From Candidatus Lokiarchaeum ossiferum (GTDB lineage: Archaea > Asgardarchaeota > Lokiarchaeia > Sigyniarchaeales > Promethearchaeaceae), in the NCBI GenBank assembly GCA_025839675.1, contig CP104013.1:2370001-2402000 (forward strand): a stretch of DNA of 32,000 nucleotides, read 5' to 3'. Below the pieces are notes generated by a model that saw only the letters and a list, made by a program, of their open reading frames with translations, made no database searches and was not told the DNA's origin. Positions 2 to 22,418 of the stretch are shown piece by piece (positions within the stretch are counted from its first letter, which is position 1; the number at the start of each line of letters is the position of its first letter). Position numbers and translations under genes: made by a program.

Positions 2-2263
2 TTCACAACGTGGGCAACAGAAAGAAAAGGGGATGTGGAATTTATTTCCCATACTAATGCATTCCAAACCAATACACCTATAATCACTGGAGTTGCAAGC
101 AGCGGAGATCAAGTAGCAGCCAAAGCAGAACTCATAAGAATAATGGATGAAATGATAGAAATCTACGGATGTTACAAATCTATGTACATCTTAGATACAG
201 AGGGACTTATTGTAGCCTTGACTACTGCTGATGGCGTCGAATCGGTGTCGGAAGAAGGGGATGATGAATCTTCTGAGTTTGAAGTATCTTATATCATTGA
301 CAATAAAGATGTTACAGGATACGTATTTATGTCCGATTTTCATTTACAAGAGGGAGATGTTCAACTCGCAGTTTCTTCTCCAATTTATGATGTATCCGGT
401 ACTTTTAGTGGAATAATTGTTTTTCAAGTAGATTTGGTGTCATTCAATGCATTAATGCAAGATACAGAAGGATTGGGTGAATCGGGCGAAACCTATGTAG
501 TAAATAAAGATTTAGAATGGATATCACAATCTAAATTTTCCACCATGAAACTCCTTGAAGACAGTATCACTCAACCAGGAGCCATTTCTGCATTGGAAGA
601 TAATCTGGATGTCATCATTGAAAATGATGATTATCGTGGTATTCCTGTTTTTGGAGCTTATATCTATATTAATGCTGTTGAAGATGCAGGATGTTCGATT
701 GCAGGAACCGAATGGATTTTGGTAGCGGAAATTGATAGTAAGGGGGAGGCATTGGTCCCGGTTCAAACTCAACTAATTTCGACATTGATCATAATTGGAG
801 TATCCATTATTGCAATTGGAATAATTGCTTGGTTTATTGGATCGAGTACAGCAAACCCAATAAAGGAATTAGCCGGTGTGAGTCAAATCATCGCAAAGGG
901 AAATTATAATACCGAAATCGAGGTAAAAGCCAATGATGAAGTTGGTGAATTGGTGGAAAATTTCTCCGTTATGGTTGGAAATATTCGCCAAAATCAAGAA
1001 TTTGTTCGATTATTGGTTGATTCTTCAGCATCACCTTTAGTCCATTTGGATAAAGATTTAGTAATTCAAGATGTTGGCGAATCTTTCACCGATCTCACGG
1101 GATTTCCACGAACACATTATATCGGAAAACCGGTTTCCGTTTATTTTGAGGATGCAAATGAACTCGATCAAGCCGTTGCACTGTTCAATAAAAATGGAGG
1201 ATTAACCCAATTTGAATTCAAACTAGCAAATAATAAAAACAAATCCATAATTGCCCAAATAACAGCGAAGAAACTAATATCTAAAGCGGGGGAAAATTTA
1301 GGAAATCTTACTACATTAGTTGATGTTACAATTATCAAAGAGTTAATCAAAAATGTGTCACAAATTGCTGAGGAAGTTTCTTCCATGTCATCTCAAATTG
1401 CCGAATCGAGCAGTCAAATCAATATGTCTGTGCAAGAAGTCACAGGAGGAACTCAAGAAGTTGCCCGAGGTGCACAACATCAAACTCAAAGCGTGAATAT
1501 TATTTCCGATGCTGTAATGCGCGTACAAGAAGTAAGTAAAAACATAGTGTCGAATTCAGATGAACTTGCCCAAGATGGTGCCGCAGGTCAAGATATGGCC
1601 CAGAAGGGAAAGGATTTAACCGATGACTTAGTCATCCGGATCAACGAAATTACAACCGGAGCAAATAAAGTATCCATTGTAATGGGATCTCTAGAAGATA
1701 AAAGCAAAGCAATTAATAAAATTGTGGATGTAATTTCTGGAATTGCCACGGAAACCAATTTACTCGCGTTGAATGCAGCCATTGAGGCCGCTCGAGCAGG
1801 AGATGCAGGTAAAGGGTTTGCAGTTGTAGCAGAACAGGTCCGGAAATTAGCTGAAGATTCCAAACAAGCGGCGGATCAAATCAATGATTTGATTAAAGCC
1901 ATTCAAGTGGAAGTGGTAGATGCAGTTAAAGCCACTGATACAACTGTAGTCGCGATCAATGAAGGTCAAACGGCTTTAGATGGCACGAAAGTCCAGTTAG
2001 ATGCGCTGTTTGGAGTAATCAACAAAACAAATATCGGAATCAAGGAAACTATCGATAAAGTCACCACACAAGATGGCCATATTGCTAATATTGTGGATAA
2101 TGTCGAGAAAATTAATGTAGTCATTGAGCAAAGTTCAGGGACCGCTCAAGAACTTTCCTCATCCACAGAAGAAATGGCTTCGACCTTGGAAGAAATGAGT
2201 GCCGCTGCAGAAGAACTCAATGCAGCAGCAACCAAGTTATTCGATGAGATCAAACAATTATAA
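2..2263 (+). CDS. Methyl-accepting chemotaxis protein (Cache-like sensor, TM, HAMP, PAS, MCP signalling domain); 5' end probably cut by the window edge
   Basis: The ORF track starts at GTG 35, but the same frame is open back to nt 2 with no stop, and no N-terminal TM helix precedes the extracellular sensor region. A TM helix [23 protein letters not shown] is followed by a HAMP-like segment ([17 protein letters not shown]). The highly conserved MCP hairpin motif is present: [36 protein letters not shown]. Confidence 0.9.
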
Positions 2264-2275
2264 TTTATTTCTCAC

Positions 2276-2283
2276 TTTTTTTT
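2276..2283 (+). terminator. Oligo-T tract downstream of the MCP gene (archaeal-type terminator signal)
   Basis: A T8 run begins 13 nt after the TAA stop (2261-2263) and is followed by more T-rich sequence (cttcctttt). Archaeal RNA polymerase terminates at oligo-T tracts. Confidence 0.4.
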
Positions 2284-2383
2284 CTTCCTTTTAGTTAAGG
2301 GTGACATAATTTTATATAATATAATCTGATATTTTTCCATCAAATAAAAAGGTCGAATTTCATATACATTGAGTTGCTTCAAC

Positions 2384-2395
2384 TATATATATAAA
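2384..2395 (+). promoter_or_regulatory. TATA-like box upstream of the candidate selenoprotein ORF
   Basis: TATATATATAAA at 2384-2395. The usual archaeal spacing of about 26 nt to the TSS would place the TSS near ATG 2414, giving a leaderless or near-leaderless transcript. Alternatively, AGGAG at 2398-2402 serves ATG 2408 from a more distal promoter. Confidence 0.3.
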
Positions 2396-2407
2396 GAAAG
2401 GAGATGA

Positions 2408-2713
2408 ATGGAAATGGAAATTAAGGAAAATGCCCAGAAATATATTTCTTCGTTGGGATCTAAGTTGAAAACACCTTCCGTCATGATCTATGAAAAAACA
2501 TATAAAAGTTGATGTGGAACATCCAGTTATCTTAAAATCCGTGTTATGAACAGTGAAGAAATCTTCGATCCAGAATCATATGTTATTCATAAATTGGATA
2601 AGGTTCCATTTCCAATCTATGTTGAAGCAAAACTTCAGGATCTATGGAATTCTTTGGTTATTTACGTGGATGGAAAATATAGCTACAAACAATTAATGAT
2701 CATGAAAGATTGA
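2408..2713 (+). CDS. Candidate selenoprotein, small HesB/IscA-like (U-C-G motif) protein with in-frame TGA at 2510-2512
   Basis: Not in the ORF track. My manual translation reads MEMEIKENAQKYISSLGSKLKTPSVMIYEKTYKS-TGA-CGTSSYLKIRVMNSEEIFDPESYVIHKLDKVPFPIYVEAKLQDLWNSLVIYVDGKYSYKQLMIMKD-TGA(2711-2713). The frame has 34 sense codons before and 66 after the internal TGA. The next in-frame ATG lies 12 codons past the TGA. AGGAG at 2398-2402 lies 5 nt before ATG 2408. TYKS-U-CGTSSYLKI aligns by eye with E. coli IscA RTSGCSGMAYVLEF. Confidence 0.55.
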
Positions 2714-2790
2714 AAATCCGTTGGAATGAAATAAGTCGACAAACTTCGCGATCTATGGACCCCGTGCCCTCGGATGATGGATAGTTATGG
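2714..2790 (+). promoter_or_regulatory. Candidate SECIS-type structured 3' UTR element
   Basis: This is the only GC-rich patch in any intergenic region of the window (cgcgatctatggaccccgtgccctcggatgatgg). Three pairings can be traced by eye. AUCCG 2716-2720 pairs with CGGAU 2771-2775. AUAAGUCG 2731-2738 pairs with CGAUCUAU 2749-2756, with one mismatch and one G-U. CCG 2762-2764 pairs with CGG 2771-2773, closing a 6-nt loop followed by A2774. The fold was not computed and the alternatives are mutually exclusive. Confidence 0.3.
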
Positions 2791-2822
2791 AATTAAAAAA
2801 AAAGAGACTGATTTTTTGCAAT

Positions 2823-4484
2823 TTACTTCTTTTTGTTTTTCACGGCACTTGGAACCATTTTTGGGCCCAATTTACCCGCTTTTAGCATATCAGTAAGAGT
2901 ATCACGTAATTTATACTTTTGAATCTTTCCTCTACCACTCAAGGGTAATTCAACATCAAAATTTACAAATCTTGGCACACTAGGGCTGTTAATTTTCCCA
3001 TAGCAATAATCGACTACATCTTGCTCAGTTAATTTCGATTCTGGAGGACGATGAACAACAGCAGCAACTAATTCACCATATTCTTTATCGGGAACGCCCA
3101 CAACAGCCACCTCCATAATATCTGGATGTTGGATCAGGAAATTTTCAACCACTTTTGGATAGACATTGAATCCGCCATAGATGACCATATCTTTCTTTCT
3201 TCCGACGATTTTGAAATAGCCATTCTCATCCACTGTAGCTAAATCCCCAGTGTGAAGATAACCTTTATCATCGATTGGTTGAAATTCAGATTTTAAATAT
3301 CCTTTCATAACGTTGTATCCTTTAACTACGAGTTCTCCTTTTTCACCAATCGCAACTTCTTCATTATCATCATCAAAAATGCGCACATCAATATCAGGTA
3401 TGGCTTGTCCCACAGATTCAACTCTGTTTTCAAAAGAATCATCAGGTTTGGTCAAAGTAATGATAGGACTTGCTTCAGTTAATCCATAACCAATAATGAT
3501 ATCTTGCATTTGCATTTCATTAATAATCCCTTTCAATGTATCAGGAGGACAAGGGGCACCTGCGATAATCCCAGTTCGAAGATGAGAAACATCGATTTCA
3601 GGATGATCTTTTAAATATCTTAAGTATCGCATGAAATGAGTTGGAGTTCCATGAGCCACAGTCACACCTTCATCCATAACCTTTTTCATTGCAATTGAAG
3701 GTGTTTGATCCAACAGTGGGATCATGGTTGATCCGGTCAAACAAGCCGTTGTAATTCCCAAAGTATTCCCAAAACAATGAGAAAAGGGCACAGGAATTAA
3801 ATATTTATCAGAGGGGCCACATTCCATTACATTGGCAGTATCAACCGTATTCCGAATAATGTTATAATGAGTTAATTGTGCACCTTTTGGTGTTCCAGTG
3901 GTCCCTGAGGTATATAGAATGAAGGTGACATCATCTTTATTGATGGAATCTTGCACTTCATGTAAGGCTTTTAAATTTGCTTCATCCAATGGAACATTCA
4001 TCACGTCTTTCATGTTCACGATGCCTTCCATCTCAGATTCAACTTTCTCAGGATTATCCATCAACACAATGTTGCGAAGATCAGGCACCTCAGAGCGAAA
4101 TGATTCCACCATTGGAATGTAGTCAGAGGTACAAATGATGGCAACAGACTCAGAATGGTGCATAATGAATTTTGCTTCGTGAGGTTTATACCACGAATCC
4201 ATTGGAATTAAGGTAACTCCAATTTTAGGTAAAGCAAACCAAGCAACAATCCACTCATAAATATTGAGGGCCCACACTCCGGCTCGCTCTCCTTTTTTCA
4301 AACCTAATTTTTGTAATCCAATTGCAAGTTTTTCGATATCTTCATGGAGTTCTTTCCAAGTTTTTCGTAAATTGTCAAAGACTGCCGCTTCAATAGTAGG
4401 ATAAAGACCAGCTACAATATCGATCAATCCACCAATTGTGAGGTTTTTTTCCATTTCAGTAAGAATTTTATTATCAATAGCCAT
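2823..4484 (-). CDS. AMP-dependent acyl-CoA synthetase/ligase (fatty-acid-CoA ligase family)
   Basis: 553 aa with adenylate-forming superfamily motifs: LYTSGTTGTPKGAQLTH (A3), GYGLTE (A5), TGDLA (A8) and the C-terminal catalytic Lys context GRGKIQKYKLR. Confidence 0.9.
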   Translation of the reverse strand: MAIDNKILTEMEKNLTIGGLIDIVAGLYPTIEAAVFDNLRKTWKELHEDIEKLAIGLQKLGLKKGERAGVWALNIYEWIVAWFALPKIGVTLIPMDSWYKPHEAKFIMHHSESVAIICTSDYIPMVESFRSEVPDLRNIVLMDNPEKVESEMEGIVNMKDVMNVPLDEANLKALHEVQDSINKDDVTFILYTSGTTGTPKGAQLTHYNIIRNTVDTANVMECGPSDKYLIPVPFSHCFGNTLGITTACLTGSTMIPLLDQTPSIAMKKVMDEGVTVAHGTPTHFMRYLRYLKDHPEIDVSHLRTGIIAGAPCPPDTLKGIINEMQMQDIIIGYGLTEASPIITLTKPDDSFENRVESVGQAIPDIDVRIFDDDNEEVAIGEKGELVVKGYNVMKGYLKSEFQPIDDKGYLHTGDLATVDENGYFKIVGRKKDMVIYGGFNVYPKVVENFLIQHPDIMEVAVVGVPDKEYGELVAAVVHRPPESKLTEQDVVDYCYGKINSPSVPRFVNFDVELPLSGRGKIQKYKLRDTLTDMLKAGKLGPKMVPSAVKNKKK

Positions 4485-4775
4485 GTTTACTAACCCATTT
4501 TATTCCCATTTTCATAAATAGGATAAATTGTGATTAATTTATTCTCATTCAAATTTAAAAGCTGTTCTACCCTCACTGAAATGAATTCCAAAATTGTTAC
4601 AATATTTGAATTATTGGGAAATTTCATATGGTATTTTTTACATTATGCAAATTTTCATCAGTTTGATGAATGAAAATCGAAGGGACTAGATTAGATCACG
4701 TATGAAATCATGCTTTTTCATTGTACATGTTAAGTTTATTTTTCAAAATAGCATACTATTTTTTATAGATAAACC

Positions 4776-6368
4776 ATGCAAAATAATACTGAAAAAAATG
4801 ATAGTAAGTACCATCAATTCTTTGAAACAATTGAAGATCCGATTGTAGTTTTCCAGATTGATAATGATGGTTTACCATCCTTTTTTTCCGAGGTAAATGA
4901 AGCCGCTTGTAACTTGCTGGAATATTCTCGAGACGAATTACTCTGCAAAAAACCCCAAGAATTAGATGAAAAATTCAAAATCAATACTGAATGGTTTGTG
5001 AAAGAATTACTTGAGACCAAATATTTACGGTATGAAGGGAATCTAATACCAAAGGGGAATAAAAGCATTCCTGTAGAAATTCATGCCAAATTAATTAATA
5101 ATTATGACCCTCCATTGATACTTTCTGTTATTCGAGATATTTCGGATAAAATTCAATTTGAAACAGCCCAAATGGAATTATTTGGAGCTTTTTCATCAAA
5201 ATTGAAGGGAATCTTTCAAGCCTTTCCAGATCTATATTTAAAAGTGGATTATGAGGGCAAAATTTGCGATTCTTATGCAGAAGATTATTCAAAATATCAA
5301 TTAGAAAATGCAGACAATTTAAACAAACGAATTTCAGAGATTTTACCCAAAGAATCAATTTTCCAGATATTACAGGGTTTGAAAGAAGTTAAAAGAACAA
5401 ACCACCTAGTAACAGTCGAATTTCAGTTAAATAAAACAAAGGAAGACCAATTTTTTGAAGCACGAATGGTTCCTTATGATCAACATCATGCAATAGTATT
5501 ATTACGTGATATCTCAAAAAGAATTCAAGCTGTGCGTGCACTTGAGTTGGAACATGAAAAAAAAAGAAGGCTGGAATCCCAACTTCTCCAGCGTCAGAAG
5601 ATGGAAGCCATTGGACAACTCACGGGAGGCATTGCCCATGATTTTAATAATATTCTGATGTCTATAGAAATGAACGCAGATCTCGCGACATCCATCTTAG
5701 AACAACAAAATCAAAAAATAGATGCGATTAATGACCTAAATGAGGCAGTAAAGCGAGGGAAAGATTTAACTAATCGGTTACTTACTTTTAGTCGAAAAAA
5801 GCCTATTAAAGCAGAATTAATGAACTTGAATAGAGGTATAGAAGATATACAAAAAATGCTAAAGTGGCTCATTCCTAATGAAATAAAACTTGTTTTGGAT
5901 TTAGATCCAAGAATAGGACTTATCAGGACGGATCGGATCCAATTCGATCAGATAATTATGAATCTTGCTGTCAATGCACGAGATGCAATAGTGGAGGCAA
6001 ATTCACATCGAGAAAAGCGACAAATCCTTATATCTACTACCATAATTACTCTCGATCACGCAATTGAAACCAAAATATCTTTCATCCCTCCAGGAAAATA
6101 TTATGTAATGAATGTCCAAGATACAGGCATAGGTATGACTACAGCTACCCTTGACCGAATTTTCGAACCCTTTTTCACGACTAAAGAGGAGGGAAAAGGA
6201 ACCGGAATTGGATTAGCAACAGTATATGGAATTGTAAAGCAAAATAATGCTTTTATTCATGTAGAAAGCAAATTCGGCCAAGGAACAAATTTTCAAATAT
6301 ATTGGCAAGTTGAACAAGACCCGAAAACAAGAAAAAATGGAAAGGATAATGAATCTGTTGTTTTTTAA
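4776..6368 (+). CDS. Soluble PAS-domain sensor histidine kinase (PAS-PAS-HisKA-HATPase_c)
   Basis: 530 aa with no TM segment. The H-box is GGIAHDFNNILMSI, the N-box NLAVNARDA, and the G-boxes DTGIGM and GKGTGIGLATVYGIV. The N-terminal half has PAS-like segments (FFETIEDPIVVF...). Confidence 0.88.
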   Translation: MQNNTEKNDSKYHQFFETIEDPIVVFQIDNDGLPSFFSEVNEAACNLLEYSRDELLCKKPQELDEKFKINTEWFVKELLETKYLRYEGNLIPKGNKSIPVEIHAKLINNYDPPLILSVIRDISDKIQFETAQMELFGAFSSKLKGIFQAFPDLYLKVDYEGKICDSYAEDYSKYQLENADNLNKRISEILPKESIFQILQGLKEVKRTNHLVTVEFQLNKTKEDQFFEARMVPYDQHHAIVLLRDISKRIQAVRALELEHEKKRRLESQLLQRQKMEAIGQLTGGIAHDFNNILMSIEMNADLATSILEQQNQKIDAINDLNEAVKRGKDLTNRLLTFSRKKPIKAELMNLNRGIEDIQKMLKWLIPNEIKLVLDLDPRIGLIRTDRIQFDQIIMNLAVNARDAIVEANSHREKRQILISTTIITLDHAIETKISFIPPGKYYVMNVQDTGIGMTTATLDRIFEPFFTTKEEGKGTGIGLATVYGIVKQNNAFIHVESKFGQGTNFQIYWQVEQDPKTRKNGKDNESVVF

Positions 6369-7039: not shown

Positions 7040-8449
7040 ATGGGTGTTCAAGAAACAAGTAATTTATTGCTTATTGATGATAAGGTGTCCATTAAAACAA
7101 AGATTGCCTTTGGTCTATCTGGAGCTTCATCTTCGGTCATGGAAGGAATGGTTTTCGGCTCTATTACATATTTCTACAATGTTAAATTGCTCCTTGATGG
7201 CGGTCTTATTGGAATTGCATGGATCATTTTTGGATTTTGGAATGCTTTAAATGATCCTATACTAGGGATCATGCAAGAAAAAACACAAAGCAAGTTGGGA
7301 AGAAGAATTCCCTATATTCGATACGGATCATTGTTTTTTGGAGCATTATTTATTCTTAGCTGGATCCCTCTCTTTGGAAGAAGTGAGACAGCATTGTTTA
7401 TTAATTTTATTTTAGTTCTATTTTTATTTGACACGATATTCACGTTAGTTGGACTTGTTAATTATTCGTTGCCTGCCGAAATGGCGATGACTGCCAAGTC
7501 ACGTGCGAGTATAAGCGCATATACCACAATTTTAGGCGCCATAGGCGTTTTAATCTCAATGGTAGTCCCAATGATACTATTCACAGAAGGGCGAGACTTA
7601 CCACCATCATTCTATCCAACTATTATCATTATTGGACTAGCAAGTACCTTAATAATGTTTGTTTCCAGTTTCTTTTTGAAAGAAAATCAATATGCCCAAC
7701 AAGAAGAAACTCTCGGGTTCTTTGAATCTATAAAATGGTGTTTGAAAAACAAGCCTTTTTTAATTAATGAAGTGAATTTTTTCTTTTTCCAGATAGCTTA
7801 CACAATCTTAACGAGCGCAATTTTTTACTATGTGGATTTCGTTTTAGAATTGGGAGGAGATCAATCATTTTATCCGGTAATCGCGGTTTTTATCACCATT
7901 TTTATAGCTGCGGGATTCATTAGCACGAAAGTTGAAAAATGGGGGTTAAAAAAAATATATATCGGTTGTCTCCTATTTTCTGGAGTGATGTTTTTCATTG
8001 CATATTTTGTAGGATCCTATTTCATACCCGGAGTAATTATGATGGCACTGATTGGGTTTGGGATCGGTGGACGAATGGTGACTGAAGGAGTTATCATGGC
8101 CGATATTATTGATTTTGATGAAACTCAAACCGGCAAAAGAAGAGAGACCACCTATGCGGGAGTAAATGCATTATTTATTAAACCAGCCATATCGATTGGG
8201 AACTGGTTATATTTAAAAATATTCGGAATCTATGGATTTAATCCTGAATCCGCAGTGCAAGGTCCAGATGTAAAAGACGGAATTTTACTCGGATTTTTCT
8301 TGATTCCAGGGATAATTATGCTCATTAGTGCGTTAGCAATGAAATTTTATCCATTAGATGGACCAGAATGGAAGAAAAAGAAAATTGAAATGCAATTGAT
8401 CCATCAACAAAAAGAAAAAGATTTTTTGAGCATTTTAAAAAAAAAGTAA
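7040..8449 (+). CDS. GPH/MFS_2-family cation symporter (glycoside-pentoside-hexuronide type)
   Basis: 469 aa with about 12 hydrophobic helices. The GPH-type loop motif is NALNDPILGIMQEKTQSKLGRRIPYIRYG. The central cytoplasmic loop is KENQYAQQEE. Confidence 0.8.
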   Translation: MGVQETSNLLLIDDKVSIKTKIAFGLSGASSSVMEGMVFGSITYFYNVKLLLDGGLIGIAWIIFGFWNALNDPILGIMQEKTQSKLGRRIPYIRYGSLFFGALFILSWIPLFGRSETALFINFILVLFLFDTIFTLVGLVNYSLPAEMAMTAKSRASISAYTTILGAIGVLISMVVPMILFTEGRDLPPSFYPTIIIIGLASTLIMFVSSFFLKENQYAQQEETLGFFESIKWCLKNKPFLINEVNFFFFQIAYTILTSAIFYYVDFVLELGGDQSFYPVIAVFITIFIAAGFISTKVEKWGLKKIYIGCLLFSGVMFFIAYFVGSYFIPGVIMMALIGFGIGGRMVTEGVIMADIIDFDETQTGKRRETTYAGVNALFIKPAISIGNWLYLKIFGIYGFNPESAVQGPDVKDGILLGFFLIPGIIMLISALAMKFYPLDGPEWKKKKIEMQLIHQQKEKDFLSILKKK

Positions 8450-10280: not shown

Positions 10281-13200
10281 ATGAATTTGGGATTAATTTA
10301 TTATAAATTTGGATTTAGAGGGCAAAAATTTATAAAAATGAGTGTTTTGATAATAATCTGCAGTCTTTTTCTATCGAAATACACAAATTTACCTTTGATT
10401 TCGCAGCATGACGACTCAGACGATTCACCGCAAATACATATAGTCAATGAATTACCCAACCAAGATACAATCGAACCCTCTGCATCGTTATTGTCATACA
10501 CATCCAATAATGTTTCCCTTTTTAACGTCAGCGAGTCAATTTTTAGTATAGCGCCGCAAACGTCCTTAGATATTGATTCCGAAAATCTCACCCTCGAAAT
10601 TCCTTCTGGCTGGGACTTTGAAAATGCGAGAATGAATATTTCGGATCTATACAAATCATGGGAAGTAATACAAAATCAGAATATTACCGGTTCGGGAGAA
10701 TTTTGGGATTTTGATACTAATATACCCTTCGTAGATCCTAATACTTTATATTTTATTGGAGACTCCACAACGGGAAATCTTAAACTTAATGGAAGAAGTA
10801 ATAAATACTCTTCATATTTTGATGGAGATTATGCTTCTTGGTCCCAGACAGTTACCAATCCAGAAAATGATCTTCAAATCTATGAAAGTGAGTTGATTAG
10901 AGAGAATTCTAATCAGACACTGCTTCAAAATGATTTTTCAGTCAATCCTTTCTGGCAACCCTTACTTAATTTTCCTTATGGGGGAACTAATGGAACATCT
11001 ATTTATGAAGCAGAATATGACCCATCGTCAGAATATTTATCTACTTATATTAAGGCAGGAAGTAATGAACTTTCCCTAGGAAATCCATCCGTAGGGTGGC
11101 AAACTAATTTTACTAATCCTAATTCACTGTCTTTTAAAGCAAATCGTTTTGAATTAACTGTTTCTTGGAACTTAGAAAGTATAGACCTTGAAGCCGAGGA
11201 TAACTTATCAATAATCATTCGTATTGATGATCAATATGTGGATGGTAGGATTGATGTGGACGGGAATACCTATTTAGATAATGCAACTGAAATCACCATT
11301 GAAAATTCCGTAGTAAGTGGTGTACTTGATCATGATACTATCACCCGGACTTTTGATATTACAGAGATGATTGATTCATCAAAAGAGTTTCACACTATTG
11401 ATTTTGGAATTTGGTTAGAAAATATTGATGAAACTAATGATGAAGTTCGAGTCAATTTTGCTGCGCTTGAGATCAAGGCAATTGAAGAAGACCAATATAA
11501 AACAGGGGAATTATCTTTTACTTGTGAAATTGATATGGATAAATATATTAATTTTGTAGATGACTGGCAATTATTCTACTCTTTTTCTAATTCAACATCT
11601 GTTGATTTTCATCGAATAGGTTATGTATCAGACTATTTTTCTTCATTAATAGGGACTCAGCGGATAAATGTGAATTTGTCATCCCATTCACGATCTTTTC
11701 TAAATCAGCAAGAGTATCGCTTTTCACTTGGTTTAGTAGGGGCAAATAATAATACAACTCTAGAAAAAGATACCCTTTTTGTATATTTTGATGATATTTC
11801 ACTATGTCCTATTTATAGATCCACCAATTTTTCAAAAGCTCAACTTCAAATATTCAACGGTACAGGATATGAACAAGTTGTAGAATCTTCCTTTGATTTT
11901 TTAGAATCTGTCCATAACAATTACATAAATGCAAGCTTTCTTATTAACAATCCCGACTATGCAAATTCACAATTAAATTTTATTAGTTCCTTGTCAGTGA
12001 ATAATTTTCAAGAAAATTTAGCACAGGCAGATTTTTTTATTGATGTTAATGATTTAACCAATGGAAATGAAATCAAATGGAATGTATCTTATAATAATTC
12101 AGATACCTTCACGCATTTTTCCTTGAATAATTATGAAAATTTTAAGATATCTTATTACAACTTCACGATTATTGATCTCCCAGCCTTAGATTCCTTAGGA
12201 AAAGATTCTATTGATTGGGACTTTCGAGACTATTATGACCCTTCCAATACAACCCCAAATTATGCAACGGCAGTTCATACGAATGGTACCCTAAGTAGTG
12301 GTACACATCAGAATGTAACAATTGTTAATGCAACGAAATTGGAGGATTTTTATATTAATGGAACATGGATATTGAAATTTCTATCGCAGAATTATATTGA
12401 GGATTTAAAATTGAAATCTTCAACGGGTTCAATTATACTGCCAAAAGTGTATTTCGGAAATGAAACCAAAATTAAAATCAATCAAATTTTTCCATCAGAT
12501 TTGACGGGAAATTATAGAACTGAAATCAGGAATGCAAGCGATATAATAATCTCTTCTTTTCCAAAATTTAATTCAAGCATTGTAGGCAATCTTTCGTTGG
12601 ATTGGAGTGTTCCGAATTTGTTACCAGGCGAATATAAAATAGTTGCATACTGGAATGATTCAACGACGGAAAATCAACAATTTTCAAGAGTGGGATTTCT
12701 TACCTATGATTTTGAAATATGGGGTCAAACCAAGGCAAATTTACTTAGAAGCCCAGATGTTCTGAGCCCATCAGACAAGGGAACGTTCTACTTTAATTTT
12801 ACTAATTATTTTGGGAATACCTTATCCGGTATCGAGCCGTATGTTACTCTTTATTGTTTGAATACGAGTAATAATTGGGGATTGGAATGGTCACCTTACC
12901 AATACTTGGTGACTGGGGTTATAGAGAATCAAACAGATGGATCTTACGGAAATTATTCACTCGAGTTTCAAACTCGCTATGTGCCAGATGGAGCCTACAA
13001 TGTATCAATTATTATCGAAAAACCATTTTATGATAGCCAATCTCTTCTTTCATTAATCAATATTACAGGATCCGAGATGTTAATTGATGTTATTTCAGGA
13101 GGTTTTAATTTAAACGCCACCCATGCTCTATTGGATTCCAATAATATTCCATATTTGAATGATACAAGTCATACTTCAATAGTCCTATATTTATATGACA

Positions 13201-16200
13201 CTTGGAATTATCCTTTGGAAAATGGGTTAATTTCAGGAACATATAATGGATCTGACAGGTCATTTTATGCAATCGATTTGTATAAAAATTCTCAAAATGA
13301 TCAAGATCTTGGAAAATATGAATTAACTTTTGATACAACGGGATTAAACGCAACAAATCCTGCCATCGGAAATTATAATTATTCCTTAACCCTATCTATC
13401 TCAGCTGAAGGATATAGTTCAATAAATCTTGAGATTTCCAGCAATATACTACCAATTCCAACAGAATTAGCATTATCAACAATTAATTCGGTATATGAAG
13501 GAGAGTTACTGGAATTGTTTGCAACTTATTCTAACATACTCAACCCGAGTTCCCCAATTTTATTGAACAATGCAATTTTAACATGGATTTTACAAAATTC
13601 GACTCATTCAAATTTAATGAGTGGATTTTTTGAGAATGTTTTCTCGGGAATGTATGAAATAGAACAGAATCTCTCCCCAACTTTACAACCTGGAACATAT
13701 GAACTAATTATTAATGGTAGTCAAGAAAATTGTGCTTTTGCTTCAAAGACAATTTCTAATTTCAAAATTTTATCTAAAAACAAGACCTATCTTAATATTG
13801 GTGGATATGAAGGGTTGCAAATTGGGACTACGATGACTATCACTGCAGTATTAGGAATAATAAATGGAACAGTTTTACCAAGTCAAGAAGTGACTTTTAA
13901 TTTAAAAAATGGTGAAGATTATTTAATTAATATCATCGAATATACGAATGAATTTGGGATTGCGTCAGTATCACAACCACTTTACCCCTATTACGCAGAT
14001 TTAAATTTGACATTAGAAGCCGTTTATGAAGGAGGTCCTACTATGAGAGGTATTTCAGATTCAATAGAGAATATTCATATTAAAGGAAAAAATGAAGTAA
14101 ATCTGACAATTTCTTCAATATCCCCAATACGAGTGGGATATTCCCCCATTATATCACTATCACTGTCAATTGAGAATGTAGAAGATTACTCTGAATATTT
14201 TATTACTCTTTCAGGATGGTATGAAAATAATTCTCAAACTTATATTGTCAATCAACAATTACTCGTGAATTCTCACGGGTTAACGTCTTATGAAATCCCT
14301 CAAATAGACGCAGGTTATGATAATTTGACTTTCTTTGTCTATTTTACAGAAACTGAGATTATCTCGTATGCATCCAAATTTGAAACATTCGGAATTATTG
14401 CAAAATGGGAAACAAATCTGACGATATCACATTATCCCGAGCAAATTCGACCCGGATATTATTTTGAATACGATATCGAAGCAAAATTTTTAGATCAATC
14501 ATGTCCTGAATCATTTTTCCAACTCCCTGTTGAAATAAACTATTATTATTCACAAACACATATCACCCAAATACTATATTTTGATGAAAATGGGAATATT
14601 TCAGTTCAAATTTTAGTTCTTGATGAATTTCAAGGTGGTTTCAATATTTCACTTTCGTTTTCGGGTTCAGAAAAAATTGATCTCGCAGAATTTCAATTCA
14701 ACTATTCAAGGGTTCTTCCAAAGTGGCAATTAGAGTTTGAATTTGAAATAGTTTCTGATTATTTTCAAATAGGGTATGAAGCTGAAATTCTCATTTCTGC
14801 AGCCTTTGAAAATGCATCTTGTACAGAAAATATCTATGGAAAATCCATTTTCGTTCAAATATCCTACCACAATCACTCAGATCTCCAAGAAATTTATTTT
14901 AACCTTCAAAATCAAACATATCTTAACTTTCTAATACCCCAAGTTGAAAAAAACACGCTCAACTTATCGGTAAGCTTCTTGGGTACAAGTAAAATTAATC
15001 CAAGCCAAAAAAATGAATCATTTGAAATTAATGAAAAGTGGAAACCATTACTGAGAATTTCTCCAGAAAAACCAAATTTGCGTATGGGAGAAACAATAAA
15101 TATCTTGATTTCTGCCTCAATATTTGATTCTCAGTTTTCTGGAGATTTTGAATTAAATTTCCCAATAATATTTTCCATGGTGTACGATCAAAATACGATC
15201 ACTTCTGAAATAACCCTTGATTCAGACGGGCAATATTCGGTAGATATTCAAGTTCCAATAATGAACAGTCCAATATTAAATATCACAGCAATTTTTTTGG
15301 GATCAGCTAAACTGCAACAAGCAATCATTTTTACATCATTTGATATTCTTCCTCAGTTATTAACAAAATTAACATTACTATCTCCTCCAACGATTTCTGA
15401 GCTCCAAGGAAGATTTTTGAACTTTAAAATTCAACTATTTTCATTGCCCAATAATGAAACACTGGAAGATCAGCAAGTTGTTTTTATCTTAAAACAAAAT
15501 TCAATTATTTTAGACAATTTTACACGAGTTACTGATGAGGAGGGAATTGTGGAATTGAGTTTAACAATTGAAGAAGCGGGAAGTTATACTTTAGAGTATT
15601 CCTATTTAGGTCATTCCATTTTTATCCCATTAATGGATCAAATTCCAATTGAGATCAAAATTGAAGACCCCTTTGAGTATTATATTTTAGATAATCTAAT
15701 CCCCATTTTAATTAGCCTTTCCTTGACATCAATAATCATTGTAAGTTCATATAAATTTGTTTATATCCCAAGAAAACGTAAAAGAGTTAAAGATCTAGTT
15801 GATATTAGAACAAAATTTAATGATTTAGAGAATTTGCAACATCTTTTTATTATTAGCAAGGAAAATGGATTAACTTTATTTTCCCATTCCTTTTCTGATA
15901 AACGCATTGAAGAAAATTTAATAAGTGGATTTATTTCCGCAATATCTTCCTTTGGCGTTGAGTTAGGAGGGCGAGTTAAACAAAATGCAACTGAATCAGA
16001 TGAAGTATCAAAGTTGAAAGAACTTTCTTACAACCAATTTAAAATAATAATTGTAGAGGGGAGTCTTATGCGGATTGCATTATTATTATTAAAATCTCCA
16101 AGTCCCTCGTTGCAAACTAACGTTAAGACTTTTCTTACATCCTTTGAAACTACGCATACAGAATTTCTTTCAAAATGGCATGGAGCAATACCGGATAAAG

Positions 16201-16718
16201 AACCAATTCAGAGAGCTTTGGAAAAGTATCTCTTTGTCCATTTCATTTATAATTACAAATTGATACTTACTCGCTTGCCAGACTACGAGAGAAAATTAAA
16301 AAGTAACTCAAATACTATAAAAATTCTCTCAGTTTGCAGAACATATTTTGGAAACTTATTCACAATGAAAGACGTTATTGAACATATGTTGACCTACGAG
16401 ATAGGAGAAGTTGAAACGTTTAACATTCTATTGAAATTGATGAAAGATAATCTATTTATACCTCTAAATACCCAAAACCAAGAGCTGGTTTTAGAATATT
16501 TACCATCCATAGAGGATTTGACTTTAGAGGAGCAAATAGTATTAAAATATATCTATGATGGACACACAGACATTTTAAAACTTTCGGATTTAACCCACAT
16601 CCCCGTGATTATTGAACCGATACATCAACTTCAAAAAAAAGGGTTGGTAACAGAGTTAAATGAATTAACTGAACTCGGAAAGAAAATTGCGATTGTTCTA
16701 AATTTAGTCAACAAGTGA
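10281..16718 (+). CDS. Giant (2145 aa) type I membrane surface protein: signal/anchor, ~1760-aa sequon-rich ectodomain with Ig-like repeats, one TM, and a cytoplasmic longin/roadblock-like plus tandem winged-helix tail
   Basis: Uninterrupted 6.4-kb ORF. The N-terminal hydrophobic segment is MSVLIIICSLFLS. I count about 62 N-x-S/T sequons by hand before the TM. The single TM helix LIPILISLSLTSIIIVSSYKFVYI (about nt 15694-15765) is followed by the positive-inside stretch PRKRKRVK. The tail is at 15768-16715. Confidence 0.9.
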   Translation: MNLGLIYYKFGFRGQKFIKMSVLIIICSLFLSKYTNLPLISQHDDSDDSPQIHIVNELPNQDTIEPSASLLSYTSNNVSLFNVSESIFSIAPQTSLDIDSENLTLEIPSGWDFENARMNISDLYKSWEVIQNQNITGSGEFWDFDTNIPFVDPNTLYFIGDSTTGNLKLNGRSNKYSSYFDGDYASWSQTVTNPENDLQIYESELIRENSNQTLLQNDFSVNPFWQPLLNFPYGGTNGTSIYEAEYDPSSEYLSTYIKAGSNELSLGNPSVGWQTNFTNPNSLSFKANRFELTVSWNLESIDLEAEDNLSIIIRIDDQYVDGRIDVDGNTYLDNATEITIENSVVSGVLDHDTITRTFDITEMIDSSKEFHTIDFGIWLENIDETNDEVRVNFAALEIKAIEEDQYKTGELSFTCEIDMDKYINFVDDWQLFYSFSNSTSVDFHRIGYVSDYFSSLIGTQRINVNLSSHSRSFLNQQEYRFSLGLVGANNNTTLEKDTLFVYFDDISLCPIYRSTNFSKAQLQIFNGTGYEQVVESSFDFLESVHNNYINASFLINNPDYANSQLNFISSLSVNNFQENLAQADFFIDVNDLTNGNEIKWNVSYNNSDTFTHFSLNNYENFKISYYNFTIIDLPALDSLGKDSIDWDFRDYYDPSNTTPNYATAVHTNGTLSSGTHQNVTIVNATKLEDFYINGTWILKFLSQNYIEDLKLKSSTGSIILPKVYFGNETKIKINQIFPSDLTGNYRTEIRNASDIIISSFPKFNSSIVGNLSLDWSVPNLLPGEYKIVAYWNDSTTENQQFSRVGFLTYDFEIWGQTKANLLRSPDVLSPSDKGTFYFNFTNYFGNTLSGIEPYVTLYCLNTSNNWGLEWSPYQYLVTGVIENQTDGSYGNYSLEFQTRYVPDGAYNVSIIIEKPFYDSQSLLSLINITGSEMLIDVISGGFNLNATHALLDSNNIPYLNDTSHTSIVLYLYDTWNYPLENGLISGTYNGSDRSFYAIDLYKNSQNDQDLGKYELTFDTTGLNATNPAIGNYNYSLTLSISAEGYSSINLEISSNILPIPTELALSTINSVYEGELLELFATYSNILNPSSPILLNNAILTWILQNSTHSNLMSGFFENVFSGMYEIEQNLSPTLQPGTYELIINGSQENCAFASKTISNFKILSKNKTYLNIGGYEGLQIGTTMTITAVLGIINGTVLPSQEVTFNLKNGEDYLINIIEYTNEFGIASVSQPLYPYYADLNLTLEAVYEGGPTMRGISDSIENIHIKGKNEVNLTISSISPIRVGYSPIISLSLSIENVEDYSEYFITLSGWYENNSQTYIVNQQLLVNSHGLTSYEIPQIDAGYDNLTFFVYFTETEIISYASKFETFGIIAKWETNLTISHYPEQIRPGYYFEYDIEAKFLDQSCPESFFQLPVEINYYYSQTHITQILYFDENGNISVQILVLDEFQGGFNISLSFSGSEKIDLAEFQFNYSRVLPKWQLEFEFEIVSDYFQIGYEAEILISAAFENASCTENIYGKSIFVQISYHNHSDLQEIYFNLQNQTYLNFLIPQVEKNTLNLSVSFLGTSKINPSQKNESFEINEKWKPLLRISPEKPNLRMGETINILISASIFDSQFSGDFELNFPIIFSMVYDQNTITSEITLDSDGQYSVDIQVPIMNSPILNITAIFLGSAKLQQAIIFTSFDILPQLLTKLTLLSPPTISELQGRFLNFKIQLFSLPNNETLEDQQVVFILKQNSIILDNFTRVTDEEGIVELSLTIEEAGSYTLEYSYLGHSIFIPLMDQIPIEIKIEDPFEYYILDNLIPILISLSLTSIIIVSSYKFVYIPRKRKRVKDLVDIRTKFNDLENLQHLFIISKENGLTLFSHSFSDKRIEENLISGFISAISSFGVELGGRVKQNATESDEVSKLKELSYNQFKIIIVEGSLMRIALLLLKSPSPSLQTNVKTFLTSFETTHTEFLSKWHGAIPDKEPIQRALEKYLFVHFIYNYKLILTRLPDYERKLKSNSNTIKILSVCRTYFGNLFTMKDVIEHMLTYEIGEVETFNILLKLMKDNLFIPLNTQNQELVLEYLPSIEDLTLEEQIVLKYIYDGHTDILKLSDLTHIPVIIEPIHQLQKKGLVTELNELTELGKKIAIVLNLVNK
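13450..15670 (+). repeat. Seven tandem, diverged ~105-aa (~315-nt) Ig-like protein repeats inside the giant ORF
   Basis: Unit boundaries recur at about 13455, 13775, 14086, 14400, 14719, 15034 and 15350, with the array ending near 15660. Recurring unit-end motifs are AVYEGGPTMRGIS, SFSGSEKIDL, SFLGTSKINP, IFLGSAKLQQ and SYLGHSIFIP. Recurring unit starts are AKWETNLTI, PKWQLEFEF and EKWKPLLRI. The repeats are conserved at protein level only, not as DNA repeats. Confidence 0.6.
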
Positions 16719-18182: not shown

Positions 18183-18415
18183 TTAATCTCTAGGATTGCC
18201 AATTTTTAGCGTCGCTAGAACAAATAATCTCACAGTAAAAATTAGGCATCATTTCAGAATTACTATGCGGAACAATAGTTTTTTGCCTAAGAAATCGCTT
18301 GATTATTTGATTAATTAGTAAAAAGTTAGAATATTGCAGCCTTTTGACTTTTTTGAGATTGGGAACAAATGAAAATCTATCGATTATTCTTAATAGGAAT
18401 ATTCTATGACAGTGA

Positions 18416-18423
18416 ATTTATAT
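18416..18423 (+). promoter_or_regulatory. TATA-like box upstream of lysC
   Basis: ATTTATAT is centred about 26 nt upstream of roughly nt 18445. This would give a short leader containing GAGG (18449-18452) before ATG 18459. Confidence 0.3.
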
Positions 18424-18458
18424 CCAAGGGAATAATGATCTTACTATTGAGGAAAACT

Positions 18459-19919
18459 ATGTTGAGTAATTCATCCACCACCGTAAATTTAGATATTCAA
18501 GCAAAAAAGATCGCAGTTATGAAATTTGGAGGCTCGTGTTTCAAAAATGCAGAAGCATTCCAACAAATAGTTAAAATCACAAATCTTTATGATCAAGAAA
18601 AAAAAATATATGTTGCTTCAGCCCTTCATGGAGTTACAGATCAACTCATTCAAGTTACTGAATATGCAAGCAGTAAAAATACAAGAAAATTGGAAGAAAT
18701 ACTTGAGTCAATAAAACAAAGGCATCTTTCAACAATCCAAATGATTTTTAAATCTAACTTAGAACACCAGTTAGAAGCTTATAACGGTATAAAGAATTAT
18801 TTGGCAGAATTAAGTAAAGTTTTAAATGAAGTAAATGAATTTGGAATAATCCCCTATTTTATCGATTATATTGTTGCATTTGGGGAAAAAATGAGTACTT
18901 TTCTACTGCATTTATATCTGAAAATGAATGGCTTTCCTACCTCGCTGTTTATGGGAGAAGATCTTATAATTACTAATGATGAATTCAATAATGCATTCCC
19001 AGATTTACGATTTACCATTCACAGAGTGAATCAAAACTTACTTCCAATCTTAAACGATGCAAATACAAATCGGATTGCATGTATCACAGGATTTATTGGA
19101 CGAAATAAAATTGGATATACGACCACTTTAGGAAGAGGAGGAAGTGATTTTACAGCAACTATTATTGCAAGGGCTATTTATGCATGCAACCAGGAACACA
19201 AAATCAAGGTAATTTTGTGGAAAGATGTGGATGGCATGTTGTCAGCCAACCCAGAATTTGTTGATAATCCTACACTGGTCAAAAAATTAAATTATGCAGA
19301 AGCTAAGGAATTAGCATTTTTTGGGGCTAAAGTACTGCACCCAAAGTGCTTAGCTGTTATAGAAAATCAAAATATTCCTGTAGAAATCCGCCGATTTTCT
19401 TCTCCATCAAAAAAAGAAGATTTCTCGACAATATCAGAACTTTCGGATAATACAGATATGAAAGGTATTGGTTCTATTAAGATTGCTTCCATGATTACAC
19501 TCTCCTCCGCGGTAATGGTTAAAGAATCAGGATTTGTTGGGAAAATATTCTCAATTTTAGGGAAAAATAACATTAACATCAATTTTATAGCTCAAAGTAG
19601 TAGTGAAATAGCAATAACCTTTGTTGTTGATAAAAATGATGGAGAAAGAGCGCTAAATCTCTTAACCACGAGTAAAGATCTTCCAATTAAATGGATGGAT
19701 GTAAAAAAAGACGACATCGGAATTATTGCGGTAGTTGGGGAACATATTCACAAATCTTCCAATAAATGTCGTATTTTCCGTGCTTTAAGTGAAATTGATT
19801 TAGATGCAATTTCAATCTCCCAATGTAGCAATGGATTGAATATTTCTATCATAGTGCCAATAAAAAGAGTTCAAGAAGCGGCTAATGCAATTAATAATGA
19901 ATTTTCTACCCCAAATTAG
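18459..19919 (+). CDS. lysC: Aspartate kinase (monofunctional, C-terminal ACT domains)
   Basis: VMKFGGSCF is the kinase N-terminal motif and TLGRGGSDFTATIIA is the conserved aspartokinase motif. The C-terminal ~150 aa are ACT-like. I prefer ATG 18459 (GAGG 7 nt upstream) over the ORF-track start 18369, whose extra 30 aa are hydrophobic filler. Confidence 0.88.
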   Translation: MLSNSSTTVNLDIQAKKIAVMKFGGSCFKNAEAFQQIVKITNLYDQEKKIYVASALHGVTDQLIQVTEYASSKNTRKLEEILESIKQRHLSTIQMIFKSNLEHQLEAYNGIKNYLAELSKVLNEVNEFGIIPYFIDYIVAFGEKMSTFLLHLYLKMNGFPTSLFMGEDLIITNDEFNNAFPDLRFTIHRVNQNLLPILNDANTNRIACITGFIGRNKIGYTTTLGRGGSDFTATIIARAIYACNQEHKIKVILWKDVDGMLSANPEFVDNPTLVKKLNYAEAKELAFFGAKVLHPKCLAVIENQNIPVEIRRFSSPSKKEDFSTISELSDNTDMKGIGSIKIASMITLSSAVMVKESGFVGKIFSILGKNNININFIAQSSSEIAITFVVDKNDGERALNLLTTSKDLPIKWMDVKKDDIGIIAVVGEHIHKSSNKCRIFRALSEIDLDAISISQCSNGLNISIIVPIKRVQEAANAINNEFSTPN

Positions 19920-19945
19920 GTTTTTTTCTCTAACAGGTGATTCAT

Positions 19946-21244
19946 ATGACTAACAAAAAAACAGATAAAAAGTATAATTTTGAAACTACGGCGATTCATG
20001 GAGGTTATTTTGAAGTAGAACCAACTTCCCGATCTCGGACGGTTCCTTTATATCAAACTTCTTCCTTCACATTTCGTGACGACGAACATGCTGCAAACCT
20101 CTTTGCCTTAAATGAACCTGGAAATATTTATACACGTATTGGTAACCCCACAAACGAAGTTTTGGAACAACGAATTGCGCAATTGGAAGGAGGAATTGGA
20201 GCACTCGTTACAAGTTCTGGACAAGCAGCAGAGACTCTCGCACTACTAACTTTATTGAAACAGGGAGATGAAATTGTTTCCAGTTCAGAAATTTATGGAG
20301 GTACATATACACTTCTTAACTACACATTGGCTAATTTTGGAATAAAAACAATTTTTGTGGATCCGAATTCACCAGAAAATTTCTTGAAGGCTATTACAAG
20401 CAAAACCAAAGCAGTTTATTTAGAATCCTTAAGCAATCCCAAACTAAATGTCCCTGATTTGGAACAAATTGCAAATATTGCACATAATCATGAAATACCT
20501 TTAATTGTTGATAATACAATTCCATCACCTTATTTGTGTAATCCAATAAAATGGGGAGCGGATATTGTTTTGCATTCAACTACTAAATATATTTCAGGCC
20601 ACGGCTATGCCATTGGGGGTGTTATTGTCGACTCGGGTAATTTTGATTGGAGTCAATCTAATCACTATTCCTATTTTAATGACCCCGATCCATCATACCA
20701 TGGATTAAATTTCCATAAACATTTTGGTAATTCAGCATTCATCGCAAAGTGTCGTGTGCAATCACTTCGAGATCTGGGCAGTGCACCAAGCCCATTTAAT
20801 TCGTGGTTAACCTTGGTTGGATTAGAAACCCTTGCACTACGAATGGAGCGAACTTGTGAAAATGCAGAGAAAATAGCAAAATTTCTATTATCCCATCCAA
20901 AAGTCTCATGGGTTAATTATCCTTCGCTATATTCAGCGGAAAAACTCACTCACTTTAATAAATATCTTCCCAGAGGATATAGTGGATTGATGGGATTCGG
21001 TGTTAAGGGAGGATATGAAAGTGGCAAGAAATTAATCAATAACGTCTCATTAATCTCCCATTTAGCAAATATTGGAGATGCTAAAACACTAATCATACAT
21101 CCAGCGAGTACTACCCATCAACAATTGACACCTGAAGAACAATTGAATGCAGGAGTTAGTCCAGATTTTTTACGTTTATCCGTTGGAATTGAAAATATTG
21201 ATGATCTCATCCAAGATCTCAACGAAGCATTAAATTCGATATAA
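19946..21244 (+). CDS. metY: O-acetylhomoserine sulfhydrylase (PLP-dependent Cys/Met metabolism family)
   Basis: [26 protein letters not shown], and the PLP-lysine motif [12 protein letters not shown] prefer ATG 19946, preceded by AGGTGA, over GTG 19937. Confidence 0.88.
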
Positions 21245-21277
21245 TAATTTTTACCAACTTAAGGAAGAGGAAAACTA

Positions 21278-22393: not shown

Positions 22394-22418
22394 TTTCACT
22401 AAAAGGAAGAAAAGCAAC

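Follow-up and report, generated by a model that had tools for sequence, protein, structure and literature searches.

The stretch analyzed here comprises 32,000 nt of the genome of Candidatus Lokiarchaeum ossiferum (assembly GCA_025839675.1, contig CP104013.1, positions 2,370,001 to 2,402,000 of the forward strand); it is referred to below as the window, and coordinates count from its first nucleotide. Near its beginning, a methyl-accepting chemotaxis protein (MCP) gene (35-2263) is followed by an acyl-CoA ligase gene that is read convergently from the minus strand (2823-4484). In the 559-nt gap between them, the deposited annotation recognizes just one product, the 55-aa "hypothetical protein" NEF87_001965 at 2546-2713. 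A preliminary description of this DNA had pointed to a longer, TGA-interrupted open reading frame (ORF) at 2408-2713 as a candidate selenoprotein gene in a gap of about 560 nt. Apart from the exact size of the gap, this frame reads as described: 34 sense codons, a TGA (2510-2512), 66 further sense codons, and a terminal TGA (2711-2713), with the residues ...VMIYEKTYKS-(TGA)-CGTSSYLKIRV... around the internal codon. It is equally correct that no start codon lies beside the internal TGA, the nearest ATG after it being at 2546, 12 codons on, where the annotated 55-aa protein begins. The evidence presented below indicates that 2414-2713 on the plus strand is very probably a single gene for a 99-residue selenoprotein, in which UGA would be decoded as selenocysteine (Sec) through a Sec insertion sequence (SECIS) element in the 3' untranslated region (UTR).

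The position of the start codon required a revision. The preliminary description correctly placed an AGGAG upstream of the ORF but began translation at ATG 2408. In the closest ortholog, L001, a TAA stands immediately 5' of MEIKEN..., and for this reason the conserved start is probably ATG 2414, which yields the 99-aa product; an AAGGAA precedes the start of L001 at comparable spacing. When gaps of 559 nt with the same size and composition were simulated with a Markov model, 2.1-2.7% contained an ORF of at least 100 codons with one TGA. The ORF by itself is modestly unusual, and comparative evidence lifts it above chance. Support for the TGA itself, which the preliminary description had left to be checked, comes from four Logan assemblies of separate sequencing runs (L004, L005, L007, and L008), all of which align across the codon and carry it unchanged; since the four are identical, the TGA is not a sequencing or assembly error.

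Conservation of the TGA together with the coding sequence on both of its sides provides the first line of evidence. L001, found in a metagenome of the European Nucleotide Archive (ENA), is a syntenic ortholog with the same ligase and PAS histidine kinase neighbors; its protein is 83% identical to the window protein, and it carries TGA-TGT-GGA in frame. Before the TGA, 9 of 32 codons differ between the window and L001, six of them synonymously and three conservatively, and after it 30 of 66 codons differ, 16 synonymously and 14 non-synonymously. A pseudogene was considered and rejected on these grounds. A third close ortholog, L103, which was left out of identity scoring, has also kept AGC-TGA-TGT-GGA. 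More distant members were retrieved in two ways. A HMMER search of 1.84 billion representative proteins, run with X at the TGA site, returned four full-length relatives (25-33% identity) with W-C-G at the corresponding column, and a profile search added five more; the DNA was examined for eight of these nine. A first pass with a word-seeded homology search had returned two C-terminal fragments only. Across all 11 loci examined as DNA, TGA-TGY-GGN occupies one alignment column, although identity to the window protein falls to 24-33% in the distant loci. The full-length homologs align over both parts, before and after the TGA, and in several of them the next Met beyond it is 28-62 codons off or missing. 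The family motif is [SG]-U-C-G-[TVL]. The proposal of a U-C-G selenoprotein, made originally from a single sequence, is supported by homologs that span both halves.

The W found at this column in public catalogues (loci L009-L016, proteins P0005-P0013) derives from gene calling under genetic code 4, in which TGA is read as Trp, on contigs of 0.5-1 kb. P0011, the twelfth member, was seen as a protein and shows the same W-C-G artefact. In L015, code-4 calling also runs through the true TGA stop (601-603), and the SECIS element of that gene (611-647) is buried in a false C-terminal extension. Another of these loci, L012 (23-274, P0008), has TGA-Cys-Gly, ends its ORF early, and shows no detectable SECIS element on its contig, which has 1.3x coverage and is probably chimeric or frameshifted. 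A code in which TGA means Trp was considered for L. ossiferum and excluded, because this genome stops at TGA and encodes Trp as TGG: TGA ends 3 of 20 large ORFs in addition to this gene, and TGG supplies the Trp codons (98).

Outside the Lokiarchaeum lineage, close orthologs seem to be scarce. Neither the close-ortholog alignment nor exact peptides matched anything in the species-representative genomes, from which the source genome itself seems absent or masked, and a scan of metagenome contigs with the close-ortholog alignment gave no match. The contigs of the distant members are too short for taxonomic placement; the kink-turn SECIS elements in their 3' UTRs point to Asgard hosts.

The second line of evidence is this RNA element, which the preliminary description had not noticed. 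Beginning 12 nt past the stop codon, the 3' UTR reads AUGA, AAUAAGUCG, ACAAACUUCG, CGAUCUAUG, and GA, that is, a stem of nine positions with two non-standard pairs beneath a 10-nt, A-rich apical loop, ACAAACUUCG. SECIS elements of Lokiarchaeota were described as an AUGA, a 9-bp stem, an 11-nt loop with an A-rich start and a final G, and a GA, located right after the stop codon (Mariotti 2016; PMC4989117). A later, more general model of a type I eukaryotic SECIS (eSECIS)-like element combines a core of GA_[G/A]A with a stem of 7-15 bp, in which up to two mismatches are tolerated, and a loop of 8-20 nt (Huang 2024; PMC11227280). In core, stem, loop, and position, the window element agrees with the published lokiSECIS and type I eSECIS-like definitions: it shares the AUGA, the nine-position stem, the A-rich loop ending in G, the GA, and a 3' UTR location near the stop. 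A scan of both strands of the 32-kb window with a strict lokiSECIS pattern found this site only, with 0.07 expected by chance.

Relatives of the gene carry the same element. A covariance model, R1, was trained on four elements (window, L001, L009, and L010). It scores the window element at 59.8 bits and recovers the held-out elements of L011, L013, L014, L015, and L016 (E 1.5e-5 to 0.015) as well as that of L103 (52.5 bits). Except on the suspect contig L012, every gene is followed by a SECIS element; these stand 4-36 nt past the stop, and all 10 elements found have the AUGA and GA core. In a nine-element alignment, eight of the nine stem pairs show compensatory double changes, and 86.4% of cells are paired, compared with 63% in shuffled controls (none of 500 came up to the real alignment) and 32-47% after sliding of the partner strand. 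Fitting this alignment to R1 biases it toward structure; nevertheless, the literature had supplied the definition of the stem in advance, and pairing is much lower in the slid controls. Next to the AUGA/GA core, most elements have a non-standard pair, as would be predicted for the position above a kink-turn. The loops of the relatives measure 10-14 nt, start with AYAAAC..., AAAAAC..., or GUAAAC..., and mostly end in G. The accepted selenoprotein gene selD served as an external control. In 308 kb of sequence surrounding 80 Lokiarchaeial copies of it, R1 found four sites; each of them is on the coding strand and follows the selD match by some 10-20 nt, where the SECIS of this gene is known to lie. 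Within the window, R1 has only one other match, at 8335-8366 (+; 11.1 bits, E 0.83), which falls within the 3' portion of an ORF for a major facilitator superfamily transporter (7040-8449) and is probably due to chance.

The surroundings of the core are also conserved, and the 3' UTR is better conserved between orthologs than the coding sequence. RNAalifold, run on three orthologs, paired two flanking segments into a lower helix. Here the window has UCCGUU/GAUGGA, and L001 and L103 have UCCAAU/AUUGGA; one pair has changed on both sides and three on a single side, with pairing preserved. Between core and lower helix, the segment CCCCGUGCCCUCGG has remained unchanged among the three orthologs although their coding sequences have diverged; in L011, L013, and L014, a small hairpin (CCCA...UGGG) takes its place. 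Compared with the published Lokiarchaeota elements, the present group differs in four respects: the loop is 10 nt in the window and 10-14 nt in relatives rather than 11, the core-adjoining pair is usually non-Watson-Crick, an invariant segment or mini-hairpin is inserted between core and lower helix, and the gene family served is absent from the published Asgard selenoproteome. Stop codons also vary at the corresponding end of the gene, with TAA in the distant homologs and TGA in L001, L103, and L015. The features of the locus are collected in Table 1; T-runs like that of its last row also occur 3' of the structured UTR in the homologous loci.

Table 1. Coordinates of the predicted selenoprotein gene and its flanking signals in the window
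Feature	Position	Strand	Remarks
AGGAG, possible ribosome-binding site	2399..2403	+	Read in sequence; 10 nt before ATG 2414, 4 nt before ATG 2408; function inferred
Coding part 1, codons 1-32, MEIKEN...YKS	2414..2509	+	Alternative start at ATG 2408 adds Met-Glu
In-frame TGA, predicted selenocysteine codon 33	2510..2512	+	TGA-TGY-GGN column in 11/11 loci
Coding part 2, codons 34-99, CGTSSYLK...IMKD	2513..2710	+	Deposited part is 2546-2713 only
Terminal TGA, true stop	2711..2713	+	12 nt from SECIS core
Lower helix, 5' arm	2716..2722	+	RNAalifold on three orthologs; pairs with 2776-2782
SECIS core	2726..2759	+	AUGA 2726-2729; 5' stem 2730-2738; loop ACAAACUUCG 2739-2748; 3' stem 2749-2757; GA 2758-2759
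Invariant CCCCGUGCCCUCGG	2760..2773	+	Between SECIS core and lower helix; identical in window, L001, and L103
Lower helix, 3' arm	2776..2782	+	RNAalifold on three orthologs
T6 run, possible archaeal transcription stop signal	2810..2815	+	Read in sequence; inferred

A third line of evidence comes from protein families. Along its whole length, the window protein aligns with NF041239, the NCBIfam model of a "CC/Se motif family (seleno)protein" (residues 2-96 on model positions 4-88 of 91). Its 99-aa form scores 25.9 bits and its 101-aa form 28.5 bits, the highest score within the family being 33.1 bits. The model was matched by nine of the 10 rows scanned, which represent six different proteins, four of them in two versions (best E 4.1e-8). 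In three members, exchanging Cys for Ala in the model comparison costs 5.2-5.3 bits at the Sec column and 3.4 bits at the adjacent Cys; because score is lost there, the TGA can be aligned with the first of the two conserved Cys columns of NF041239. NF041239 is the family to which the preliminary description referred when it stated that small proteins with alternating CC and UC motifs are annotated as (seleno)proteins. Pairing of Sec with Cys, an accepted criterion in the field, is indirectly indicated here through the NF041239 model columns; among the 1.84 billion representative proteins, no Cys form of the archaeal-type family itself was retrieved, and for this reason the family seems to be obligately Sec-containing. 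The two groups have a length of about 90-100 aa, full-length colinearity, and motif columns coinciding with U33-C34 in common. NF041239, predicted in Moorella thermoacetica, is bacterial, whereas the archaeal-type family described here has a kink-turn SECIS element in the 3' UTR instead of a bacterial in-frame SECIS, and places Sec in the first motif position (U-C). Judged from these comparisons, NF041239 is the nearest family, and the window gene would represent a divergent, sub-threshold, archaeal-type branch of it.

The preliminary description had favored the HesB/IscA-like selenoproteins. Their archaeal representatives form a separate family, TIGR01911, with the motif UxGP, according to a 2026 review that treats NF041239 as a predicted bacterial family and gives it no archaeal mark in its Table 1, in which 11 families are archaeal (PMC13188914). 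TIGR01911 was not matched by the window protein or its nine probe variants at E<=10, nor by any of the 10 scanned rows at E<=1. Membership in TIGR01911 was rejected on this ground and because the motif here is U-C-G, not U-x-G-P (PMC13188914). What the HesB-like family (Methanococcales and many bacteria) shares with the present one is that both are small selenoproteins related to HesB/IscA. The seven families of the Asgard selenoproteome (Huang et al.; PMC11227280) do not include this one, and no report of it was found among the later papers searched.

The relation to HesB/IscA that was suggested by eye does persist at the level of the fold. AlphaFold, given a ten-sequence family alignment, modeled the protein with a pLDDT of 91.5 and a pTM of 0.79; from the single sequence, the result was uninformative (pLDDT 42). 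The model consists of a short strand, a helix (5-15), a long beta-hairpin (21-31/36-46), strands 56-61 and 64-71, a helix (72-80), and strands 81-86 and 93-98, with S-U-C-G at the tip of the long hairpin. When the PDB was searched with Foldseek, nine of the 10 best matches (ranks 1-8 and 10) had the HesB/IscA fold (probability 0.97-1.00, TM 0.52-0.63), and matches below these are noise. The best are IscA (1R94, 1S98, 1X0G), SufA (2D2A), HI1723 (2APN), AQ_1857 (1NWB), and DsrR (2K4Z). The modeled structure is accordingly a HesB/IscA-like alpha+beta fold. Likeness to the A-type iron-sulfur (Fe-S) carriers IscA/SufA/ErpA (PF01521) comprises this fold (Foldseek probability 1.00 and TM 0.56-0.63 to 1R94, 1S98, 1X0G, and 2D2A) and a recurrent weak PF01521 signal, which reaches 15.4 bits for the window protein against a gathering threshold of 26.3 and E<=1 in four of 10 members (best E 0.005). 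We infer that the Sec-Cys loop is the topological counterpart of the Cys35 loop of IscA, because the secondary-structure elements (helix, strand, loop, strand) follow in the same order, and not from residue superposition. In TIGR01911 proteins, Sec stands in place of the Cys that is conserved in HesB domains, a site analogous to the position that this order of elements suggests for Sec33. The A-type carriers differ from the present family in lacking significant sequence similarity to it, in having a single loop Cys where a vicinal Sec-Cys stands here, and in possessing the C-terminal Cys-Gly-Cys, which is missing here. Cys34, adjoining Sec33, is the sole Cys of the window protein; its C-terminus reads ...LMIMKD, and the family has no conserved C-terminal Cys. 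The IscA/HesB assignment thus holds for the predicted fold, but not for TIGR01911 membership or for a sequence link to IscA.

Sec is reported to be used by 85.9% of sequenced Lokiarchaeia/Helarchaeales (PMC11227280), which makes the prior for Sec machinery in L. ossiferum favorable. The preliminary description had stressed that the trait is patchy in archaea; the statement is less striking for this lineage, given that proportion. No literature statement on Sec in L. ossiferum was found, and the 32-kb window contains no tRNA genes. SelD was searched with a Lokiarchaeial query from the supplement of PMC11227280. A SelD known from Logan only, P0091, comes from unrelated runs. In a Lokiarchaeial relative, Logan contigs (L097, 1492-3873; L099, 343-2724) carry two selD-like genes side by side (291 and 290 aa; AIRS/AIRS_C), and this pair fits the report that many Lokiarchaeia and Thorarchaeia have at least two selD genes.

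Several observations weigh against reading the locus as a selenoprotein gene of HesB/IscA fold. In the search of SelD protein clusters, the best 120 of 1,101 proteins did not include L. ossiferum, and neither did the best 80 of 153 loci when a SelD profile was run on species genomes. For the RNA, Rfam contained no SECIS or other significant family at the gathering threshold or at E<=10, the apical loop is one of 10 nt rather than the 11 of the first-described lokiSECIS elements, and the 3' UTR alone folds no better than shuffled sequence (z = +1.5). Since its folding energy is unremarkable, the case for the element rests on motif, position, and covariation. For the protein, the NF041239 scores lie below the curated cut-off of 40 bits, the family profile found no IscA among the PDB sequences, hhalign gave 0.3% probability against Escherichia coli IscA, and the missing C-terminal Cys-Gly-Cys ligands of the A-type carriers make metal or cluster binding speculative. 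The case as a whole is built from sequence comparison and structural modeling.

These points were weighed together with other explanations of the locus. If the internal TGA were a true stop, two independent small proteins of 32-34 aa and 55 aa would result; gene callers gave exactly these two products, and an ATG is found 12 codons past the TGA in three close orthologs. However, the 11 codons from the TGA to that ATG are themselves conserved as coding sequence, with CGTSSYLKIRV identical in the orthologs over synonymous changes, and in distant homologs no Met follows the TGA at close range. A confident model folds the halves into a single compact domain, and together they give one colinear full-length match to NF041239, in which the Sec column aligns with a conserved Cys; two separate proteins are very unlikely on this evidence. 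That Cys column, a classic Sec signature, also speaks against readthrough of the UGA with a standard amino acid, whether Trp, Cys, or Arg through a near-cognate tRNA or Trp through a reassigned code. Database proteins do show W at the site, but this W is the code-4 artefact on contigs below 1 kb, the DNA reads TGA, the genome ends genes at TGA and uses TGG for Trp, and an accepted Lokiarchaeial-type SECIS element follows every gene except on the suspect contig L012. Insertion of a standard residue is consequently held to be just as improbable as two proteins.

The hairpin behind the gene could in principle serve as a transcription terminator or an mRNA-stability element unrelated to recoding, as its place at the gene end, the T-runs after it, and its unremarkable folding energy would allow. 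Nevertheless, the stem covaries between conserved parts, namely the unpaired AUGA and GA(C) flanks and an A-rich loop with a final G. Such features characterize a kink-turn SECIS rather than a terminator, and R1 also recovers the site at which selD genes are known to have their SECIS; a role of the hairpin outside recoding is extremely improbable. A last alternative accepts the selenoprotein family elsewhere and supposes that L. ossiferum has lost Sec decoding, so that truncated peptides or nothing would be made from a relic. The absence of L. ossiferum from the SelD matches listed and the roughly 14% of Lokiarchaeia that are without Sec (PMC11227280) are compatible with such a loss. Against it, L. 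ossiferum, L001, and L103 all retain the TGA, purifying selection acts on both coding halves, and the SECIS element is almost invariant, its lower helix showing compensatory changes; a dead gene would not retain TGA, frame, and SECIS together. A relic is therefore considered unlikely, and a functional selenoprotein gene remains the explanation that we prefer.

The genomic context of the predicted selenoprotein gene was also inspected. The gene seems to be monocistronic, placed between the MCP gene and the convergent ligase gene, and this context gives no functional clue. L. ossiferum (35-6368) and L001 have in common the order MCP, selenoprotein, acyl-CoA ligase (-), 45-aa ORF (-), and PAS histidine kinase; the 45-aa ORF (window 4490-4627, -) was called in both. 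Further along the window, a methionine biosynthesis cluster at 18369-23003 encodes an ACT-domain aspartate kinase, a pyridoxal phosphate enzyme of Cys/Met metabolism, a MetX-type alpha/beta hydrolase, and MetW. An ORF of 2,145 aa (10281-16718, +) has a sub-threshold Big_1 (bacterial Ig-like) match as its sole Pfam signal and is otherwise uncharacterized.

For the selenoprotein gene, the following mechanism is proposed. The UGA at codon 33 would be read by Sec-tRNA(Sec), delivered under the direction of the eukaryote-like, kink-turn-type hairpin in the 3' UTR, the core of which lies 216 nt downstream of the UGA. In eukaryotes, a minimal spacing between UGA and SECIS exists. By analogy, the second UGA would terminate translation because its distance of 12 nt from the SECIS element appears too short for recoding. 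In the product, the vicinal selenol/thiol pair Sec33-Cys34 at the hairpin tip, the only conserved reactive pair, would form the active center. Two roles are conceivable for it, both put forward tentatively. The pair might serve as a ligand for a soft metal such as iron, or for an Fe-S unit, located between the two protomers of an IscA-like dimer, or it might cycle as a selenenylsulfide redox couple; with neither reaching an even chance, we regard the metal or Fe-S site as slightly more likely. Mammalian thioredoxin reductase, with its C-terminal Gly-Cys-Sec-Gly, provides a known vicinal Cys-Sec redox center. Adjacent Cys and Sec beside small residues, and a possible eight-membered selenenylsulfide ring, are common to both proteins, as an analogy only. 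In the present family, by contrast, the order is reversed to Sec-Cys, the pair is internal and belongs to a beta-hairpin of an unrelated fold, and no flavoprotein partner was identified.

The finding has consequences for the annotation of both this genome and others. In a model Asgard genome, the predicted 99-aa selenoprotein currently stands as the 55-aa NEF87_001965, an entry that starts at the first ATG after its Sec codon and can now be corrected. More generally, code-4 gene calling creates a blind spot, in which selenoproteins on short contigs are stored as Trp-containing proteins. A W aligned to Cys or to TGA on short contigs offers a way to mine such hidden selenoproteins.

With respect to novelty, this is an unannotated and apparently unreported Asgard selenoprotein family that employs the known Lokiarchaeial recoding system; no new mechanism is involved. 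The family is in neither the Asgard list of seven (PMC11227280) nor the archaeal list of 11 (PMC13188914) and adds to both. On balance, we consider it probable that it constitutes an unrecognized archaeal selenoprotein family, the eighth for Asgard and the twelfth for Archaea, with a HesB/IscA fold, a vicinal Sec-Cys pair, and an apparently obligate Sec, in a cultivated Asgard archaeon. The comparative sequence evidence indicates that cultured L. ossiferum probably decodes UGA as Sec through a eukaryote-like SECIS element. Being short and monocistronic, with a single UGA and a single compact SECIS, the gene offers a convenient experimental handle in an organism that can be cultivated; if the proposal is true, Asgard Sec decoding and the eukaryote-like kink-turn SECIS would become testable in culture with a tiny gene of a single Sec and a single SECIS.

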